From Promethearchaeati archaeon (GTDB lineage: Archaea > Asgardarchaeota > Heimdallarchaeia > Heimdallarchaeales > Heimdallarchaeaceae), in assembly GCA_013166775.1 (NCBI GenBank), contig JABLTJ010000031.1:1-39398 (forward strand): DNA of 39,398 nt, read 5' to 3'. A program made the position numbers and the translations under genes. Positions within the stretch are counted from its first letter, which is position 1; each line of letters starts with the position of its first letter. The notes below the pieces were generated by a model that saw only the letters and a program-made list of their open reading frames with translations, did no database searches and was not told the DNA's origin. Of the stretch, positions 1-11,936 are shown piece after piece.

Positions 1-1693
1 CATTTTTTTCAGTTTTATCGCATCTATTGTTGTATTAGGTGTTTTTACTCCTTCATTATTAGGTTTTGCTTACTATTATGGAATGAACCTGCTAATTAGC
101 TGTCTAATAGCAGTTTTTTATGGGAGTATTCAATTACTCATTCTATCTAATCATTTAAAAGAGATATACAAAGAAGGTGAAAAAGAAGAAAATGTTCCTC
201 TTAACAAACTATCTACTTTTCTTGGGAAAACTTTACCTTGGCTTCTATTTAATCTCTCTTTAGGATTTTCCTTCTTCTTTCTATTCTTTACAGGAATCCT
301 GAAGTTTGAGATGGACTTCTATTCTGGGATCTCATTAATTGTTATATCAGTACTGTTTACTCTTTTCCTTAATATTATAATGCTGAAAAAAACTATACTT
401 TGGATAGGCAAAAAAGTAGTTTCTCTCTCATACATTTTTTCAAAATTATCTAAACAAACAATCAAATTATCAAGAAGGTTCATAAAGGACAGTTATCGTA
501 TGATACAACTACTCATTCTGTTTCTTATAATCTGTACTTTTTTCCTCTCAAGTTTTGATACTATAAATAACTTCAATTCTCTCAATAATGATCTTAATCA
601 AGTGGGAGATGTCATAATTAGTTTTCATCCTGAAAAAGGAGACATTGTAAATTCTTACTTAAGTCCATATGTGAATATTTCTGCAGAAGTACAATTACTA
701 GTTTCAGAATTTAAAACATTAACAGAACCCGGACCTATTTCACATTATGGTTTCATATTTCTCATAAATAGCAGCAAGATTTCGCAGATTTTTGATTCAA
801 AGGCTTTTAAAGATAAATATTTTGGAAATTATATAGCTAGTGAAATAAGCAATGAATTAATAGATGACTGTGATCTAGTTGTGGTAAACAAAGCATTAGC
901 AGAATTAGTATCCACTCAACAAAGTGATGCATTTTATATTCCTATACCCACTAAAAATGGTGAAAATAATCTTTTAAGAACAACAGTACTAGATATTGCT
1001 AGATTCGTCCCTTATTTCTCTGGTATTTCTGGAGAAAAACCTTTCAGTATTTTAAATAGTGAAATTATAACAAATGCAACAGAACTACAAGTTAAAACGA
1101 TGCATCATATCATATGGTTAAAGGAAAATATATCCAAAACAGTATTTAAGGATAATATTCAAACGATTAATAAAAACTATAATACACACATAGAGATTAT
1201 TGACCAATTTGAATTTCCTATAATTACAGATTATTATTGGGTACCTTCTGTTTTTCGACAATTTATGCTTTCTTTACTCACAGTTTTTACTGTATGTTTA
1301 TTCTTCCTTTTCTTAGCCTTTTATTCAGATACGATTGATAAACAAATGAAAGGTTTTAGAATTTTCTTTGCTCGGGGATTATCTTTTAAGAAAGGAATTT
1401 TTCTTTCTATGCTGCCTTTATTCTTATTTACATTGTTTTATATTGTTTTTAGCTATATTGCAGGCTTGATATTATCATTTGTTATGTTTTCTTCTATTCA
1501 ACCTAAATACTATCTAAGAATACCATTTTCTGTTTTTCCTTTCTCATTCACCTTTCTTAGTGCTCAAATAATACTGTTAGGTGCAATTCTCATCGTATCC
1601 GGAATTACTTCTTATTTGAAACTGAGAAAACAGATCCCTGAAGTAAAATTCAATGTTCCTTCAGTTTTTCAAGAGGAGGAGGGCATAATTTGA
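1..1693 (+). CDS. FtsX/MacB-like ABC exporter permease (5'-truncated by window edge)
   Basis: Frame is open from base 2 to the ATG at 83, so the gene starts upstream of the window. Multiple TM segments and an FtsX-type 'IFFARGLS' loop before the C-terminal TM bundle. Overlaps the next permease. Confidence 0.75.
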   Translation, partial: IFFSFIASIVVLGVFTPSLLGFAYYYGMNLLISCLIAVFYGSIQLLILSNHLKEIYKEGEKEENVPLNKLSTFLGKTLPWLLFNLSLGFSFFFLFFTGILKFEMDFYSGISLIVISVLFTLFLNIIMLKKTILWIGKKVVSLSYIFSKLSKQTIKLSRRFIKDSYRMIQLLILFLIICTFFLSSFDTINNFNSLNNDLNQVGDVIISFHPEKGDIVNSYLSPYVNISAEVQLLVSEFKTLTEPGPISHYGFIFLINSSKISQIFDSKAFKDKYFGNYIASEISNELIDDCDLVVVNKALAELVSTQQSDAFYIPIPTKNGENNLLRTTVLDIARFVPYFSGISGEKPFSILNSEIITNATELQVKTMHHIIWLKENISKTVFKDNIQTINKNYNTHIEIIDQFEFPIITDYYWVPSVFRQFMLSLLTVFTVCLFFLFLAFYSDTIDKQMKGFRIFFARGLSFKKGIFLSMLPLFLFTLFYIVFSYIAGLILSFVMFSSIQPKYYLRIPFSVFPFSFTFLSAQIILLGAILIVSGITSYLKLRKQIPEVKFNVPSVFQEEEGII

Positions 1694-4347
1694 AATTGAC
1701 TATGCTTATATTCAAAGGAAAAAAGAAGATTTTATTAGTAGAATCTTTCATAATTATAGCTATTTTCTTAATTGCAAGCTTATCTTTTACTTACTATTTG
1801 AATACATATAGAACAGAATGGATAGGGTTAGTGAATTCTCAAGACGAACCTGATTTAGAAATTGAGATTTCGCAACCCTTTTGGATCTTTCTAGAGGAAA
1901 GAAGTGATTTAGAAGAAGAACTTGAGAATATTCATTACTTAGCTTTATCTGCACTTCCATCTCAACTATTCAATCTAGTTATTGAAAATGTAACCATTGA
2001 AGATTATAATTTATACATTCTCAATTCAAGAATACTTGAGGTTTTTGAATATGAGCTCTCAAGAAATGAAACGTTATTAGCAACAACTAATGAAAACAAC
2101 ATAGATCCTAGTGAAATTACTGCTAACTTTGTACTTCAATCCGAGTTAAGCAACACAACAATAACAGATATTTTCAACCAAACTTCTCTCTATTCAACTA
2201 TTTTTGGTTCTAAAAATATTGACCGTCTTTCTCCTTCTGCAGATACTAGTCTAATTCTTTCGGAATCCTATTTTTCTAATCTTCTTGCATCCATCGATGA
2301 AGAAAAATTGTTAAATATTACACAAAACTTCCTTACCTATTCCTTTTACACCTTTACCTGGAATAAAACTGAATTAATCAATGCTCTTCCTTCAAAGCTT
2401 TTACGAATTCACAAAGAATGGTCACATGAAAGAATAGCGGTATTTTCACAGATATATATTCCGAACTATGTTCAATATGAAGAATTCAATGTTGTATCAA
2501 ATCAATTATTTTCTGACAAGATTAACGAAGTATTAACAGAAATGAGTAGTATTTTGATAAGCACAGTAATTATCCTCATTTTTCTCTCCCTAGCATCAAT
2601 TCTCTTATTATTTCAGTTTCTAAAAAGTAGAACAGCTTTATTCAGCAAATTGTCTCTGATTTTCTCTTCACGAGGACTAAAAGGAAAGTCAGTAAAATCA
2701 AGATTTTTAGTACTACAGTTTTGTGATTTATTACTGTCAGTAACTGTATCATTTTGTTTTATTTTCGTCTTGCTTTACTTTTATGATCTTATAATGTGGA
2801 ATTATTCTTATCTTATCATTGGTGTAACTTCTGTCATAGTTTTCTTCTCTCTTCTTGCTATGCAAATAAAGCTAGTTCAAGCGTTAGAAATACAAACAAA
2901 GACAGAAGAAACAAAAAGAAGTTCACGTTCAAGATCTCAGCTTTTTGATTTAGGTCTTAAACTTGGAATAGGATTAGTAGCTTTTATAGCTTTAATTTCT
3001 ATCCTTTCTTTCAATCAGGTTATTCTTAATATCTTTTCCATAACTATCAGTTCATTATGGATAATATCATGTAGTATATTTGGAGTGATGATTTTACTGT
3101 TCTTCTTACCGACTCTCATTAACAAACTTGTTATTCCCTTAGCTAAATCTGTGTTAAAATATAGTTCACATTTTTATTCCTCAGTGTCCAGATTATTTGA
3201 GCAAATATCTAAACAAAAGAGAGCTGTGTGGACAAGTATTTTCATTCTTCAGTTGCTTTTCTCATTGATCATTATAGGTCCAAATCTGTTTGTAGTCCAT
3301 CAAGAGCAAACTGAATTAAGTTCATATTGTTATAACGTATCATTGGTGGTGGAAACGGAAAGTGCATCTGGAATCCAAGATTTAGTTAAGAACAATCCTT
3401 CTATGATTGCTTACATTGAGCCAATTTATGTATCACAATTTCAGATTAGGAATATCTATATTTACTTAGATAATCCTATGTCTTTTTTCAATGGTGCTCA
3501 TTTCTTTGGTAATTATTTCAAAAAAAGGAGTAGTTCTCAAGTTTTCTCCTTACTGAATTCATCTGATGAATATTTTGTTACAACCAAACAAAAAGCTAAA
3601 GAAATGCAGCTTACTATTGGAGATTTGGTTAGCTTATACAAAAAGGATATCAATAGTTCTCTAGTCGAGGAGAAGAAAATCCTACTAGATGTTGCTGATT
3701 TTCTATCATTTTTCTCAATTTTCTTCGAGAGGGAATATATGAATATCTTTCTGATGAAATATAATGAATCTGCTCATATCCTCAATAAGAACAACTATGC
3801 GATATTCAGTTTTCAAGCTGAACAAGAAGCTGATGAAGAAGCTCTTTTTGCAAACCTAAGAGAGAAACATATAATGTTTAATGTAATTCACAGTTTTTCC
3901 GAGGTAACATTACAACAGAATAATCAACAAAACACTGTTTTGAAGGTGTTAAAGCTACCAATTTATTTTCTTATCCTCCTAATCCCTAGCTTAATATTTT
4001 TAATGTTTCTAGATATTCGTAATGCTGGTAATAAGTCCTTTTCGTTTTTGATTCGAAGAGGATTTCATCGTAAAAATGCTGCTTCTTTAACATCATACTG
4101 GTTTCTAATTATGTCTAGTTTGTTTACTTTGATTTCATTTATTTATGCAATTTTCGTACTATTGACAATAATTTTCATTTTAAATATCTCATATTTCATG
4201 CCGATGCAATTAGTCATAGATTGGATTTCATTAGCAATTATTACACCTATTCTGTTCTCAGCATTTATGCTTCTATTACCAATTCAAGTAAACAAAAAGA
4301 AGAAATTTCATTTCACAAAAATCAAAGGAGTAAGATTAAATGAATAA
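1690..4347 (+). CDS. Large duplicated FtsX-like ABC permease (885 aa)
   Basis: Two repeats of TM + extracellular domain + TM bundle with 'SSRGL' and 'IRRGF' loops. Translationally coupled to a LolD-like ATPase. Confidence 0.75.
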   Translation: MKLTMLIFKGKKKILLVESFIIIAIFLIASLSFTYYLNTYRTEWIGLVNSQDEPDLEIEISQPFWIFLEERSDLEEELENIHYLALSALPSQLFNLVIENVTIEDYNLYILNSRILEVFEYELSRNETLLATTNENNIDPSEITANFVLQSELSNTTITDIFNQTSLYSTIFGSKNIDRLSPSADTSLILSESYFSNLLASIDEEKLLNITQNFLTYSFYTFTWNKTELINALPSKLLRIHKEWSHERIAVFSQIYIPNYVQYEEFNVVSNQLFSDKINEVLTEMSSILISTVIILIFLSLASILLLFQFLKSRTALFSKLSLIFSSRGLKGKSVKSRFLVLQFCDLLLSVTVSFCFIFVLLYFYDLIMWNYSYLIIGVTSVIVFFSLLAMQIKLVQALEIQTKTEETKRSSRSRSQLFDLGLKLGIGLVAFIALISILSFNQVILNIFSITISSLWIISCSIFGVMILLFFLPTLINKLVIPLAKSVLKYSSHFYSSVSRLFEQISKQKRAVWTSIFILQLLFSLIIIGPNLFVVHQEQTELSSYCYNVSLVVETESASGIQDLVKNNPSMIAYIEPIYVSQFQIRNIYIYLDNPMSFFNGAHFFGNYFKKRSSSQVFSLLNSSDEYFVTTKQKAKEMQLTIGDLVSLYKKDINSSLVEEKKILLDVADFLSFFSIFFEREYMNIFLMKYNESAHILNKNNYAIFSFQAEQEADEEALFANLREKHIMFNVIHSFSEVTLQQNNQQNTVLKVLKLPIYFLILLIPSLIFLMFLDIRNAGNKSFSFLIRRGFHRKNAASLTSYWFLIMSSLFTLISFIYAIFVLLTIIFILNISYFMPMQLVIDWISLAIITPILFSAFMLLLPIQVNKKKKFHFTKIKGVRLNE

Positions 4348-5026
4348 AAAAGAAAAAAAAATCATACAAGTTTTTGATTTACTTCATGTGTATAAAGGGA
4401 AAGTCGAAACTATTGCACTTTCGGGAATAAATCTTTCAGTGTCTAAAGGAGAAAGATTAGTTATTAGAGGAAAATCCGGTGTAGGTAAAACTACTCTTTT
4501 ACATTGCTTAGCTGGAATACTCAAACCTACTGCAGGTAAGATTTTAGTTGAGAGTAGAGACATAATCGAACTCAATGAAGATCAACAAGCAGACTATCGT
4601 TGTCAAACAGTTGGTCTAATCTACCAATCCTATAATCTAGCCCCATTTCTAACTGTCAAAGAGAATATTGAATTTCCAATGATATTAGCAAAGAAACCAG
4701 AAGAGAAAAGGGAAAAACACACAGACGAGCTTACTGAATTTCTCGAAATCGAAAGGTATCTTGATCAGAAACCGGAATACCTAAGTGGAGGAGAGCAGCA
4801 AAGAGTAGCAATTGCAGTAGCTTTAGCTAATAACCCCCCAATAGTTCTCGCAGATGAACCCACAGGAAATATAGATGTAGAAACATCTCAAATTATTTAT
4901 GAGCATTTATCAAGAATGTGCCAAGTTTATGGTACGACACTAATAATTGCATCACATGATCCAGATGCATCAAAATACGCAGATAGAGAGATAATGTTAA
5001 CAAAACTGCAATCAAGAAGCTTATAG
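4340..5026 (+). CDS. ABC transporter ATP-binding protein, LolD/MacB family
   Basis: Walker [10 protein letters not shown], signature LSGGEQQR, Walker B/D-loop [10 protein letters not shown]-loop SHD. Confidence 0.95.
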
Positions 5027-9118: not shown

Positions 9119-9310
9119 TTAGCATGATAGAAGAGTTTGTAAAACGTTATAGGAGTTTAGGGCAGAAGTCTCAATATAACCAAAGCGACGAAGACGAACA
9201 TAACCGAGAACATTATCGCGATCAATAGAGCTAGCTTCAGTGAGATCGTATTTGTTGCCACAGATGATGATGGGAATGTCGGGACATTTGGGGATGACCT
9301 CGTTGATCCA
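9119..9310 (-). pseudogene. C-terminal fragment of a Ras-superfamily (Rab/Rho-like) small GTPase
   Basis: WINEVIPKCPDIPIIICGNKYD (G4 NKxD) and YIETSA (G5) are present, G1-G3 are absent. About 46% GC over 9181-9300, above the flanks. Confidence 0.75.
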
Positions 9311-9373
9311 GATGCATCTCAATATGCTGATAGAGAGATATTACTTACAAAACTGCAATCAAGAAACCTATAG
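9304..9373 (+). pseudogene. Diverged 3' remnant of an ABC ATPase paralogue
   Basis: 60/70 nt identical to 4957-5026. Encodes DPDASQYADREILLTKLQSRNL* versus [22 protein letters not shown]. Confidence 0.85.
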
Positions 9374-9502
9374 CAAGAAGTTAAAAAAACCTAAGTACGT
9401 TCGTTTGATATTGACATGTTTATTCATTTGTTTTATTTTTAATATATTATATACAATACTGAATTTGCCTAATTATATGCTGAACAAGGATTTGTCATAA
9501 AA

Positions 9503-9764
9503 TTTCCTTGGGGTTTTTAGGGTGAAGTGTAGTCTAGTATGCAGATAGGCAAGAATTACAACCGTAAAGGCCCAAACCCGTAATTCTTCCCTTATCCCCA
9601 AAAAGGAAAAAGGAGTTGAAAGAGAAGAAGTATAGGTAGTTCTTTTGGGATCTTAATCGAATTCCTGAAGCAATTATACACGTAGAACTATCAGTGGTTC
9701 CTCTACTGGTTTTACAGAACAGACTAGAAGAGGAACCATTGATGTTAACTAATTCGATTATGAT
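9503..9764 (+). ncRNA. Candidate structured RNA / leader upstream of tnpB
   Basis: Stems at 9551-9559/9580-9588, 9654-9663/9751-9760, 9690-9704/9729-9743 and 9706-9712/9721-9727. The non-Watson-Crick pairs in these stems are G-U on the + strand. Confidence 0.5.
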
Positions 9765-9948
9765 TTCACGTTTATTAATAGTAACAATTTTAGGAGCTAA
9801 AACTCATGAAAATTGAAAAGGAAATAAACAAAGAGAACTAAAAAATAAACTCAAGAAATATGAAAGATATGGAAAAGTAAAAAGCACTCATCAAGCACCA
9901 TCAGTTACTGGGTATGAGAATATCAAACTCAGGATAAAGACAGAACTG

Positions 9949-11379
9949 ATGACTGTTCAAGAGTGTGAAAGGTTGAAGAGAATAACCGCAAGAGATACTA
10001 GAATCTGTCAAACCTATCTTAGAATCATTAAACACAATGAGGAGAAACAAATCCTAGTAAATGGGGAATTTCGAAGACTAATCAAGAAGGATTTAACAGT
10101 AGACAAATCCATTTTGGATAAATTGACTTTAACTACTTCTAAAAGAACAACAGTTCCTCACGATTTGAAAAAACGCTATTCTCACTGTTCACATAATGAA
10201 TTCCAAGAATGTAGAGATAAAGCTATCTGGACTGATGAAAGTTGGAGAAAACTTCAAGCATATTCTACAATGGAACTGAAACGACCACAATTCAAGACGA
10301 AAACATCACGACCGATGTATCCAAGAATAACACAAGGCAGTTATACAGTAAGGGTTCATTTTGAATCCGGTAATACTGATGCTAAGCTTTGGTTAGAATT
10401 GAGAGACTCCCTTGATTCCAAAAAATCTAATAAGAGAATCCATAAGCGACTTAAGCTACCTTTAACTTATTCCCCTTATCACGAGAATAAACTAAAGCCA
10501 GAGCAAATAAAACAGATAGAACTAGTCTATAAATCCAAAGAACGACAGTGGTATGCACATTTCATTCAGAAATATTCTGTCCCTAGTTATCAGTCTACCA
10601 ACCCTCCAGCAGTTTTGGGAGTAGATCTAGGAATAAAGAAGACAGCTGTTGCAGTGTTACTTACCCCCAGAGGGAAAGTGATCATGGATGAACTCTGCTT
10701 CATTGTCAATAAGGAGAGACAATCGAAAATATGGCAACTCAATAAACGGATTAAGGATATTCAGAAAAAACTAGATACAAAGATAAACAATGGTCAATCC
10801 CATAACCAGCTTAACGTTAAACTTTCTCAATTGCGAAGAAAACGTCGTTCTATTACTGAACAGGAGCTGGGTTATGCTGTCAATCAACTTGTTGAGTTCA
10901 TTCTTCAGTTGAAGAAACAGTATAATCTGTTTGTCTCTGTTGGCTATCCTAAAGACATTCGCAAAAGTTACCTTCGTGGTAGTGGAAGCAAATCCCATCG
11001 ACGACAACTCCATAAGTGGTATTATCGTCTTTTCATCACTAAGCTGAAATACAAGCTTAAACGCTATGGATTTGAACCTCATCATGTAGTAGCAGTCAAG
11101 GAGAAAAATACCTCTAATACTTGTTCCAGTTGTAATTCAACAAACACTACCCGTACAGGACAAGGACAGTTCAATTGCCACAAATGCAAATACGAACTCG
11201 ATGCTGATCTGAATGGAGCAAAGAACATAGCAAAGAGGTTGATACGATATGCTTTGAAACCAAAACTACGCCATCCTTTGAAACCAAAGAACTACTATGT
11301 ATGGGACCTACTAACGAAAGACAACCATCCGATAGAGCTTTTTAAAAGTCTCCGGCCCCTAGGTAAATGGCTTAGGTGA
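9949..11379 (+). CDS. tnpB: TnpB-family RNA-guided endonuclease with rearranged RuvC-II (true N-terminus probably further upstream)
   Basis: RuvC-I LGVDLG (D226), bridge-helix region, VSVGYP (G332 at the usual Glu), VKEKNTSNTCSSC (E385 + CxxC), CHKC, RuvC-III DADLNGAKNI (D420). Confidence 0.9.
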   Translation: MTVQECERLKRITARDTRICQTYLRIIKHNEEKQILVNGEFRRLIKKDLTVDKSILDKLTLTTSKRTTVPHDLKKRYSHCSHNEFQECRDKAIWTDESWRKLQAYSTMELKRPQFKTKTSRPMYPRITQGSYTVRVHFESGNTDAKLWLELRDSLDSKKSNKRIHKRLKLPLTYSPYHENKLKPEQIKQIELVYKSKERQWYAHFIQKYSVPSYQSTNPPAVLGVDLGIKKTAVAVLLTPRGKVIMDELCFIVNKERQSKIWQLNKRIKDIQKKLDTKINNGQSHNQLNVKLSQLRRKRRSITEQELGYAVNQLVEFILQLKKQYNLFVSVGYPKDIRKSYLRGSGSKSHRRQLHKWYYRLFITKLKYKLKRYGFEPHHVVAVKEKNTSNTCSSCNSTNTTRTGQGQFNCHKCKYELDADLNGAKNIAKRLIRYALKPKLRHPLKPKNYYVWDLLTKDNHPIELFKSLRPLGKWLR

Positions 11380-11535
11380 TTCTGAAAAGAATACATCGTT
11401 TCGTTGGATCCGATGTGCAGGTCGAGAATCTGTCCTACCTTAGTTTGACAGGTTCTATAATGAGTGCCCTAAATCAAGAGATGATTCCAGAAGACCGGTA
11501 CTGTCACTCTATGACTTGTTCATCTTGTCATATTA
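11350..11535 (+). ncRNA. Candidate TnpB reRNA/omegaRNA overlapping the tnpB 3' end
   Basis: Consecutive hairpins: 11358-11376, ATTCT-GAAA-AGAAT at 11379-11392 (GNRA loop), 11393-11416, 11425-11456 and 11503-11515. This is the canonical position for a TnpB guide scaffold. Confidence 0.65.
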
Positions 11536-11549
11536 TACAGTTTTACTAC

Positions 11550-11570
11550 AATGAAGAATTATTCTTCATT
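11550..11570. repeat. Perfect palindrome AATGAAGAAT-T-ATTCTTCATT
   Basis: 10-bp arms with a 1-nt centre. The right arm starts a 15-mer that is repeated at 11780-11794. Confidence 0.6.
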
Positions 11571-11936
11571 CATTCTACGCTGGTTTAGGATGAGTCTTGA
11601 AATGACCTTCACAAAAATCTATTTCAGGTTTTTTTGAAGCGACTAACTCATGCAAAGGATTATCCCCATAAGATCCAATCAGTCATTCAAATCTTTGGAG
11701 ATATAACGGTTCTCATCAACCTTTAGCTGTTCCACAAAGAGATTCTTGACATTACATCTTCTCTCTCCTTTTCCTTTTTTTCTTCATTCATTCTCTTATT
11801 AGTTATCTTAGAAACACTCGGAATTATTTATGTCATTTAGGATTTACCTAAAAATGCAACAAGTGAAGGGCTAGATGTGTGTTTACAATAGTAAAAATAA
11901 GTTAATTTGATAAATATGTGAGTATATACACTATAC

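Follow-up and report, generated by a model that had tools for sequence, protein, structure and literature searches.

A probable transposase-less TnpB element in a Heimdallarchaeaceae genome, and its enlarged, Asgard-restricted protein family with a predicted alternative-glutamate RuvC site

The replacement of the canonical RuvC-II glutamate by glycine or proline, with a compensating glutamate approximately 45-50 residues downstream, six ahead of the zinc finger, was reported in three studies (PMC10691335, PMC10530073, PMC10711439). Under the name 'rearranged RuvC-II' (RIIr) it was divided into two major clades with eight large branches, some of them nearly archaea-only and RIIr-5 the largest (Altae-Tran et al. 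2023, PMC10691335). Under the name 'TnpB2', TvTnpB of Thermoplasma volcanium was reported to cut DNA specifically beside a target-adjacent motif (TAM), ApmFanzor was found to cleave DNA with the alternative glutamate being essential there, and the rearranged enzymes displayed no collateral activity (Jiang et al. 2023, PMC10530073). Under the name 'Ealt', a D-Phi-G clade was separated from a DPG clade, the latter consisting of the Fanzors and of the cyanobacterial IS607 'pro-Fanzors', their proposed source (Yoon et al. 2023, PMC10711439). Here we examine a tnpB gene of this type in a 39,398-nt stretch of DNA, referred to below as the window (contig JABLTJ010000031.1, positions 1 to 39,398, assembly GCA_013166775.1, a Promethearchaeati archaeon of the Heimdallarchaeaceae). 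An earlier note on this DNA had considered the swap to be the signature of Fanzors and of a minority of TnpBs; the three studies cited above correct this, as the swap defines large published TnpB clades.

The gene product, its active site and its predicted fold

The gene product is a TnpB of the TnpB/Cas12f fold. The 476-aa open reading frame (ORF) originally reported scored 61.6 bits against the Pfam model PF07282 (cut-off 26.3) over residues 359-427, and when the PDB was searched with the protein sequence the direct matches were Cas12f and TnpB. This ORF is indeed present on the plus strand, but the start assigned to it in the earlier note is an internal methionine; members of the family are 511-535 aa long and the true start is the ATG at 9806. 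The assignment of the protein to the Asgard archaea was borne out, since its relatives, all of them in Asgard metagenome-assembled genomes, carry Heimdallarchaeota and Thorarchaeota labels; among 79 genome loci the labels were Heimdall, Thor or 'uncultured archaeon', with the exception of one distant match in Bathyarchaeia. The gene and the residues discussed below are as follows, with numbering of the 476-aa ORF and that of the full-length protein in brackets.

9949 to 11379, plus strand: the reported ORF, 476 aa, beginning at internal Met49 of the full-length protein
9806 to 11379, plus strand: full-length tnpB, 524 aa in the intact form; the window copy is frameshifted at codon 4
10624 to 10626, plus strand: RuvC-I Asp, D226 (D274), of the DLG motif in GVDLG, invariant in the family
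10942 to 10944, plus strand: Gly at the canonical RuvC-II Glu position, G332 (G380), in VSVGYP, invariant
11101 to 11103, plus strand: predicted alternative catalytic Glu, E385 (E433), in VKEKNTSNTC, invariant
11122 to 11187, plus strand: zinc ribbon CxxC...CxxC with C392, C395, C410 and C413, inside PF07282, invariant in the family
11206 to 11208, plus strand: RuvC-III Asp, D420 (D468), in DADLNGAKN, invariant, aligned with the Asp of the Cas12f motif NADxNAA

Translation and codon coordinates place D226, G332, E385 and D420 exactly where the earlier note had them, and the RuvC-I motif reads DLG rather than DPG, again as it had stated. E385 lies seven positions ahead of C392, with six residues between the glutamate and the first CxxC. 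In an alignment of AsCas12f with a profile built from 46 homologues, the glycine was matched to the canonical Glu within 'IQMEDL' and E385 to the Pro within 'DPQYTS'; the site at which TnpB has its canonical RuvC-II Glu is thus occupied by Gly, with the alternative Glu present instead, and the proposed Gly-for-Glu swap with a relocated Glu is upheld by this alignment and by its invariance throughout the family. All four catalytic positions were invariant in the 46-sequence Asgard alignment, and D-x-G/G/E/D was found in 118 of the 118 family members that cover all four, so that the pattern cannot be ascribed to chance; the non-conservation of E385 among homologues, which the earlier note had named as grounds for giving up its reading, was not observed in either set. 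The expression published by Yoon et al. (2023), D{P}G ... E-x6-CxxC-x12-18-CxxC-x4-8-D, was matched at ORF residues 226-420, as well as in 103 of 116 relatives.

The structure of the 524-aa form was modelled with AlphaFold2 (AF2) from the 46-sequence alignment, yielding a mean predicted local distance difference test score (pLDDT) of 85.1 and a predicted template modelling score (pTM) of 0.76. The model, together with its Foldseek matches, displays the WED-REC-RuvC-zinc ribbon fold: the first matches were AsCas12f, OsCas12f, SpCas12f, CnCas12f, ISFba1 TnpB and ISDra2 TnpB, with top E values of 1e-16 to 1e-11. In the model D274 and G380 are found at the ends of strands 268-275 and 374-381, respectively, E433 comes immediately after the following strand (428-432), and D468 opens helix 467-484. 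This is the same layout as the published geometry of RIIr-5, in which the glutamate has moved to strand five of the RNase H fold instead of strand four (PMC10691335). Taken together, alignment and model suggest that the RuvC site probably uses D274, D468 and the alternative glutamate E433, located one strand after that of the canonical glutamate.

The best structural and profile matches are canonical TnpB and Cas12f proteins (ISDra2 TnpB 8exa/8h1j, AsCas12f 8j12, OsCas12f 9nzq). Both the WED-REC-RuvC-zinc ribbon arrangement of domains and a gene whose 3' end encodes the guide scaffold, predicted in the window, are common to these proteins and the window protein. They differ from it in bearing the catalytic glutamate on the RuvC-II strand (E-D-L) and a proline where E385 sits, and Cas12f is moreover CRISPR-associated. 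As in the TldR and other nuclease-dead, domesticated TnpBs, tnpB stands here alone, without a transposase and at low copy number; unlike in those proteins, all catalytic positions of the Ealt set are conserved and the active site bears no sign of inactivation. In comparison with four relatives the gene displayed a dN/dS of 0.22-0.28, indicative of purifying selection. By analogy with characterised TnpBs, the 524-aa protein is likely to be an RNA-guided DNA endonuclease. The conserved catalytic set and the purifying selection support function for the intact allele only, and it is to this allele that the earlier description 'probably active' has to be confined; in the window the gene carries a frameshift, and a conserved strand of the WED domain is missing from the 476-aa ORF (see below).

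Relationship to rearranged TnpBs and to Fanzors

A profile search of 1.84 billion cluster representatives returned 15,059 matches, 110 of them at E <= 1e-30. Among those of the best 150 of the 15,059 matches that cover the four sites, 70 had DLG/G/E/D, about a dozen were close variants, and approximately six had the canonical glutamate. A FastTree phylogeny was calculated from 91 sequences, without Fanzor or TvTnpB sequences. In this tree the window subfamily is monophyletic (support 100). It groups first with the other Heimdall subfamilies (100) and next with the Thor-type long forms (96-98). The Asgard long forms as a whole make up one family (98), which falls among short G/Ealt TnpBs of 340-470 aa, one of which is labelled Odinarchaeia. 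This nesting, and the G/E pair in nearly all of the nearest relatives, indicate that the trait was inherited and not reinvented. By sequence, the family is a distinct, enlarged clade inside a known class, restricted to the Asgard archaea among the sampled genomes, and its configuration is in all likelihood the published 'Ealt / TnpB2 / RIIr' type, inherited from a large prokaryotic clade.

With the Ealt D-Phi-G/TnpB2/RIIr proteins the family has in common the RuvC-II Gly, the Glu six before the CxxC, a D-hydrophobic-G motif at RuvC-I, an intact zinc ribbon and RuvC-III Asp, a 3' non-coding scaffold and an archaeal host. It differs from them in size (511-535 aa versus about 400, with a longer N-terminal lobe), in its confinement to Asgard genomes as sampled, in that no TnpA partner was found, and in its long conserved 5' non-coding region and the polypyrimidine block that follows a variable stretch at its 3' end. 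The likeness to Fanzor1 and Fanzor2 extends to the predicted alternative-Glu layout of the active site and the overall TnpB fold. Here the motif is DLG and the host prokaryotic, whereas DPG is near-universal among Fanzors; the window contains no IS607 or eukaryotic transposase, and both sequence and fold are less similar to Fanzors than to Cas12f and TnpB.

Among the archaea, the host lineage is the one most closely related to the eukaryotes, and the RuvC-II Gly and the Glu ahead of the zinc finger are common to this clade and to the Fanzors; the Mimivirus Fanzor2 (9b0l) is also detectably similar to the window protein (profile E 3.8e-11, Foldseek E 5.9e-11). These observations could be taken to mean that the Asgard clade is specifically related, or even ancestral, to the eukaryotic Fanzors. 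Such a relationship is nevertheless extremely improbable: in addition to the DLG motif, neither the 116 family members nor the 87 representatives compared include one with the DPG-plus-Ealt fingerprint of Fanzors; Fanzor2 ranked only 15th in the profile search and 19th in Foldseek, far behind the Cas12f and TnpB structures (profile E 1e-23, Foldseek ranks 1-18); the nearest relatives are prokaryotic G/Ealt TnpBs of ordinary size; published trees split the Ealt D-Phi-G clade from the DPG clade that holds the Fanzors (PMC10711439); and no IS607 serine recombinase is present nearby. The earlier suggestion of a distinct clade relevant to Fanzor origins therefore stands in its first half, as an enlarged and Asgard-restricted clade, and not in its second; as judged from the motif test, the weaker similarity to 9b0l and the literature, the family has no demonstrated bearing on the origin of Fanzors. 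An independent relocation of the glutamate within this Asgard lineage, which had been offered as the other option, would suit a well supported, enlarged and Asgard-restricted clade, but we regard it as very unlikely, as the G/E pair is also present in short relatives outside the clade, the Odinarchaeia protein included, the nearest 50%-identity clusters nearly all carry it, and the 70 four-site representatives with DLG/G/E/D contrast with approximately six that have the canonical glutamate. Inheritance from the published prokaryotic class thus remains the preferred account.

Element borders, 5' region and predicted guide RNA

The region from 9510 to 11651 of the window, possibly extending to 11785, most probably constitutes a transposase-less TnpB element in a Heimdallarchaeota genome, with tnpB as its only gene. 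From approximately 9492 to 11651 the window is homologous at the DNA level to the second full copy of the same genome (on contig C27; 68% amino acid identity) and to the closest relative (locus L007; 84%); between the window and the C27 copy (L002) homology begins at 9304. Comparison with L093, a DUF87 paralogue of this genome in which the site is empty, shows common sequence ...TCATAAAATTTCTTT (up to ...AAAATTTCTTT) followed by divergence, which sets the left border at 9510 and makes TTTCYTT the candidate TAM. The stretch directly to the left, 9470-9509, aligns with the C-terminal codons of a DUF87 gene of approximately 900 aa that is found upstream of tnpB in other loci. The parts of the element and its left flank are listed below.

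9470 to 9509, plus strand: remnant of the 3' end of a HerA/DUF87-like gene, about 40 nt, ending TCATAA, plus AATTTCCTT; left flank with the candidate TAM TTTCYTT
9510 to 9805, plus strand: conserved non-coding 5' part of the element (13-locus alignment)
Start of the 9510 to 9805 part, and 9771 to 9781, plus strand: two TATA-like boxes, recognised by sequence
9544 to 9559 paired with 9580 to 9596, plus strand: hairpin A of the consensus fold
9600 to 9615, plus strand: polypurine block in the 5' part of the element
9690 to 9709 paired with 9724 to 9743, plus strand: hairpin B of the consensus fold
9792 to 9796, plus strand: AGGAG ahead of the ATG at 9806
11355 to 11651, plus strand: predicted guide-RNA (omega/reRNA) scaffold, beginning in the last codons of tnpB and ending at the conserved TAACTCAT
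11652 to 11756, plus strand: variable stretch, unalignable between loci and 14-127 nt long, of which the first ~16-20 nt (11652 to ~11671) are the predicted guide
11757 to 11785, plus strand: conserved polypyrimidine/oligo-T block, recognised by its conservation, probably a transcription terminator

The right border is marked by the invariant TAACTCAT at 11644-11651, which the more distant subfamilies share in the form TAA(C/A)TCAT; homology to L002, L007 and other loci stops at 11651. In an alignment of the 14 loci of the window subfamily, the last codons of tnpB and 272 nt past the stop could be folded into a structure of 46 pairs, with 97.2% of the cells paired. Twelve of the pairs display compensatory changes, compared to 4.1 +/- 1.4 in shuffled alignments (none of 500 as high) and 0-5 in slid ones, although these figures lean in favour of the structure, which was derived from the same alignment. 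Many of the G-U pairs are specific to the plus strand. At the border itself ATGAGT (11460-65) pairs with ACTCAT (11646-51), a helix that closes the scaffold, and a structured RNA is thus predicted over the 3' end of the gene up to the end of the element. Scans of the window for Rfam families and tRNAs gave no matches. A 70-aa ORF at 11376-11588 overlaps the predicted scaffold and is most likely spurious.

By analogy with characterised TnpBs, including TvTnpB, the 3' end of the transcript (~11355-11651) would fold into the scaffold RNA, and the ~16-20 nt that follow TAACTCAT, starting at 11652, would serve as guide. The resulting complex would then cut DNA that carries the guide sequence beside a T-rich TAM, with TTTCYTT, located ahead of the left end, as the probable motif. 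The only match to the 22-mer guide predicted for the window in its own genome, at C107:55420-55441 in a [NiFe]-hydrogenase-like gene, has three mismatches and a 14-nt identity, which is at chance level and without extended similarity, and it was rejected as a target.

Downstream of the variable stretch, the polypyrimidine block occurs in all 14 loci of the subfamily, between which runs of 16-25 nt are nearly identical, and also in the metagenome loci L122, L124 and L128; between the window and L007, homology resumes at 11718-11781. This block and the 5' polypurine block are reverse complements of each other. The polypyrimidine block is absent from the more distant subfamilies, the ends of which resemble those of ordinary TnpB genes. 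In a few loci the variable stretch recurs elsewhere. In L018 (5827-5891) the 19 nt after the border are repeated (18/19) just past the block, in the last codons of a convergent translation-factor gene, and in L122 (1933-2015) a 12-17-nt repeat of the start of the stretch occupies the same relative place. In L002 (3358-3680) a convergent gene contains in its 3' end, 273 nt downstream, a second copy of a 45-nt stretch, and in L012 (607-694) an inverted match to the stretch lies at a distance of 5 kb. No consistent TAM was found upstream of the downstream repeat copies, and the search for a second copy of the variable stretch of the window gave none that was convincing.

The consensus fold of the 5' region, obtained from the 13-locus alignment, contains 48 pairs, 10 of them with compensatory changes; from their sequence, the TATA-like boxes may act as promoter elements. 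The two full copies of the genome have 75.6% DNA identity when their whole match is counted. Judged by eye, the approximately 300 nt of this 5' region are much more similar between them than the coding sequence is, pointing to gene conversion or strong constraint.

Further to the left the window contains two gene fragments:

9119 to 9322, minus strand: fragment of a Ras/Rab-like small GTPase, G4-G5 half only, identified by six-frame translation and the NKxD and ETSA motifs
9287 to 9370, plus strand: remnant of the C-terminus of an ABC-transporter ATPase, identified by tblastn with the C27 ATPase (residues 197-228, 72% identity)

The two overlap on opposite strands and form a scar at 9119-9373. 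Insertion of the element into a GTPase gene was considered and rejected, as the N-terminal half of the GTPase was found neither beyond the element nor anywhere else in the window. The ABC-transporter ATPase that lies directly upstream of the C27 copy of tnpB (L002 1-1066) is 92.5% identical to the ABC-transporter ATPase at window 4340-5026, and window 1690-5026 and the C27 region are recent paralogous segments. The window neighbours of tnpB are ABC-transporter genes and small ORFs.

The frameshifted start, linked genes and alternative explanations

The copy of tnpB in the window lacks a T at ~9816/9817 and has an A-to-G change within 5 nt of it (~9816-9821, codons 4-6). It contains an in-frame TGA at 9814-9816, the frame from ATG 9806 stops after 11 codons (9806-9841), and from 9817 onwards the main frame is open. 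In the window the sequence is ATGAAAATTGA-AAAGGAAAT, compared to ATGAAAATTGATAAAGAAAAT in three independent ENA contigs of the same locus (L087-L089), which have the same right flank and an intact frame and are otherwise identical to the window; the intact allele has GATAAAGAAAAT at 9814-9824. A genome search also found the frame open across residues 5-524, and the cluster representative P0002, identical to the window over these residues, has 48 N-terminal residues more than the 476-aa ORF. In all 13 other loci of the subfamily the reading frame is kept. The missing N-terminal part includes the invariant RIKTE strand (R43-E47), which corresponds to beta strand 33-44 of the AF2 model; since this strand lies upstream of Met49, a product started at Met49 would lack the first WED strand. 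As assembled, the window copy would therefore yield either no product or a product from Met49 without that strand.

The genes adjoining other members of the family were also compared. In at least six of the 14 subfamily loci tnpB directly follows a gene for a membrane-anchored HerA/DUF87-like (CedD/TrwB-like) ATPase of approximately 900 aa, and one genome contains several such pairs; the loci of the ATPase-tnpB pairs are L007, L013, L014, L015, L018, L090-L092 and L112. The genus also carries a separate core ATPase paralogue of approximately 950 aa without tnpB. Solo copies of tnpB, that of the window included, retain the last ~40 nt of the HerA/DUF87-like gene. Among the Thor relatives (33-36% identity), 21 loci have one divergent giant neighbour of 1,600-1,800 aa; those catalogued are L036, L038, L045, L047, L048, L053-L059, L061-L063, L067-L069, L072 and L082. 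This giant protein had no match, Cas1 included, among Pfam, NCBIfam or PDB profiles, 26 of its homologues had no precomputed Pfam assignment, and by BLASTP it is unrelated to the DUF87 protein. Like the Cas1H-Asgard-1/-2 TnpB groups of Altae-Tran et al. (2023), the family is Asgard-restricted and has a variable stretch after its conserved end, followed by a conserved downstream motif. This motif is here the polypyrimidine block and not GTTCACTCA. A further likeness is the single recurring giant gene next to tnpB in the Thor branch; the window and its Heimdall subfamily have no such neighbour. No Asgard Cas1-like gene adjoins tnpB in the window, and the Pfam and PDB profiles of the giant protein did not confirm that the Thor branch equals the Cas1H-Asgard groups.

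As for its distribution, the source genome has eight loci with the TNB domain, and nine of 18 other genomes of the genus contain the family, with 0-7 diverged copies plus fragments each. A metagenome scan with the alignment recovered only four more loci of the subfamily, and one with the single protein recovered none.

Several observations weigh against the interpretation of the locus as a transposase-less TnpB element with a working alternative-Glu nuclease. The NCBIfam model guided_TnpB (NF040570) scored 95.9 bits over model positions 95-389 of 389, slightly below its cut-off of 100. No Y1 TnpA was found in the window and no match to PF01797 in the 88.7%-complete genome, serine recombinases not having been searched for genome-wide; near-identical copies are absent within the genus, so that current mobility is not supported, and the ABC-ATPase remnant shared by both full copies suggests segmental duplication rather than transposition. 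The nearness of E433 to D274 and D468 is deduced from its position in the predicted secondary structure and from published models of relatives, and a conserved block after the variable stretch does not fit a simple model in which the guide is host flank. Finally, the frameshift is either a real mutation or an assembly error, and the gene may be dead in this strain. If the frameshift is real, the window copy could be a decaying pseudogene, with no functional TnpB made from this locus in the strain and the element a relic. The 1-nt deletion and adjacent substitution at codons 4-6, the in-frame stop at 9814-9816, the scar of gene fragments in the left flank, truncated family fragments in the genome (L003 and L004) and the failure to find a transposase all agree with such decay. 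The other 520 codons, on the other hand, are open and identical to the intact allele of three other assemblies, the family is under purifying selection, and the two differences lie at most 5 nt apart in an A-rich run, which a local assembly or polishing error would explain as well; we therefore consider decay unlikely, while giving it some weight.

A different explanation is that the family is no longer selfish and was recruited as a module of the host or of a mobile genetic element (MGE), together with the HerA/DUF87-like ATPase in Heimdall or the giant neighbour in Thor, and with an internal, exchangeable guide cassette made up of scaffold, variable guide and terminator. The recurrence of tnpB after the ATPase gene, several pairs of which share a genome, the remnant of the 3' end of that gene at solo copies, the same giant divergent neighbour in 21 Thor loci, the polypyrimidine block after the variable stretch in all subfamily loci, and the repetition of the start of this stretch downstream in L018, L122 and L002 could all be accommodated in this manner. 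The window copy, however, has neither neighbour, the distribution is patchy and includes fragments, as for a mobile element, the distant subfamilies are devoid of the polypyrimidine block, no more than 3-4 of 17 loci have the repeats, and the predicted guide of the window has elsewhere in its genome a match of chance level only. Recruitment of this kind appears doubtful to us, and it is with similar reserve that we mention a narrower proposal, that the Heimdall subfamily may carry a built-in cassette (a scaffold ending in TAACTCAT, a guide-like stretch of 14-127 nt and an oligo-T terminator) instead of a guide drawn from the host flank. The reading of the locus as a transposase-less TnpB element of the published alternative-Glu type is accordingly retained. 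The standard model of TnpB leaves unexplained its 3' end, with the variable stretch and the conserved terminator block, as well as the linkage of its relatives to a HerA-like ATPase. Were the built-in cassette to prove true, it would, together with the recurring upstream HerA/DUF87-like ATPase, point to an undescribed way to acquire or position TnpB guides and to move an element without TnpA.

The alternative-Glu RuvC site was already described and biochemically tested in 2023, and the protein studied here extends it to an Asgard-restricted, enlarged TnpB clade, borne by an element with no known transposase. The main value of the analysis is one of correction, in that the feature does not speak for an origin of Fanzors in the Asgard archaea. 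The family itself consists of compact and apparently non-collateral predicted nucleases from mesophilic archaea, which makes its members candidate editors.

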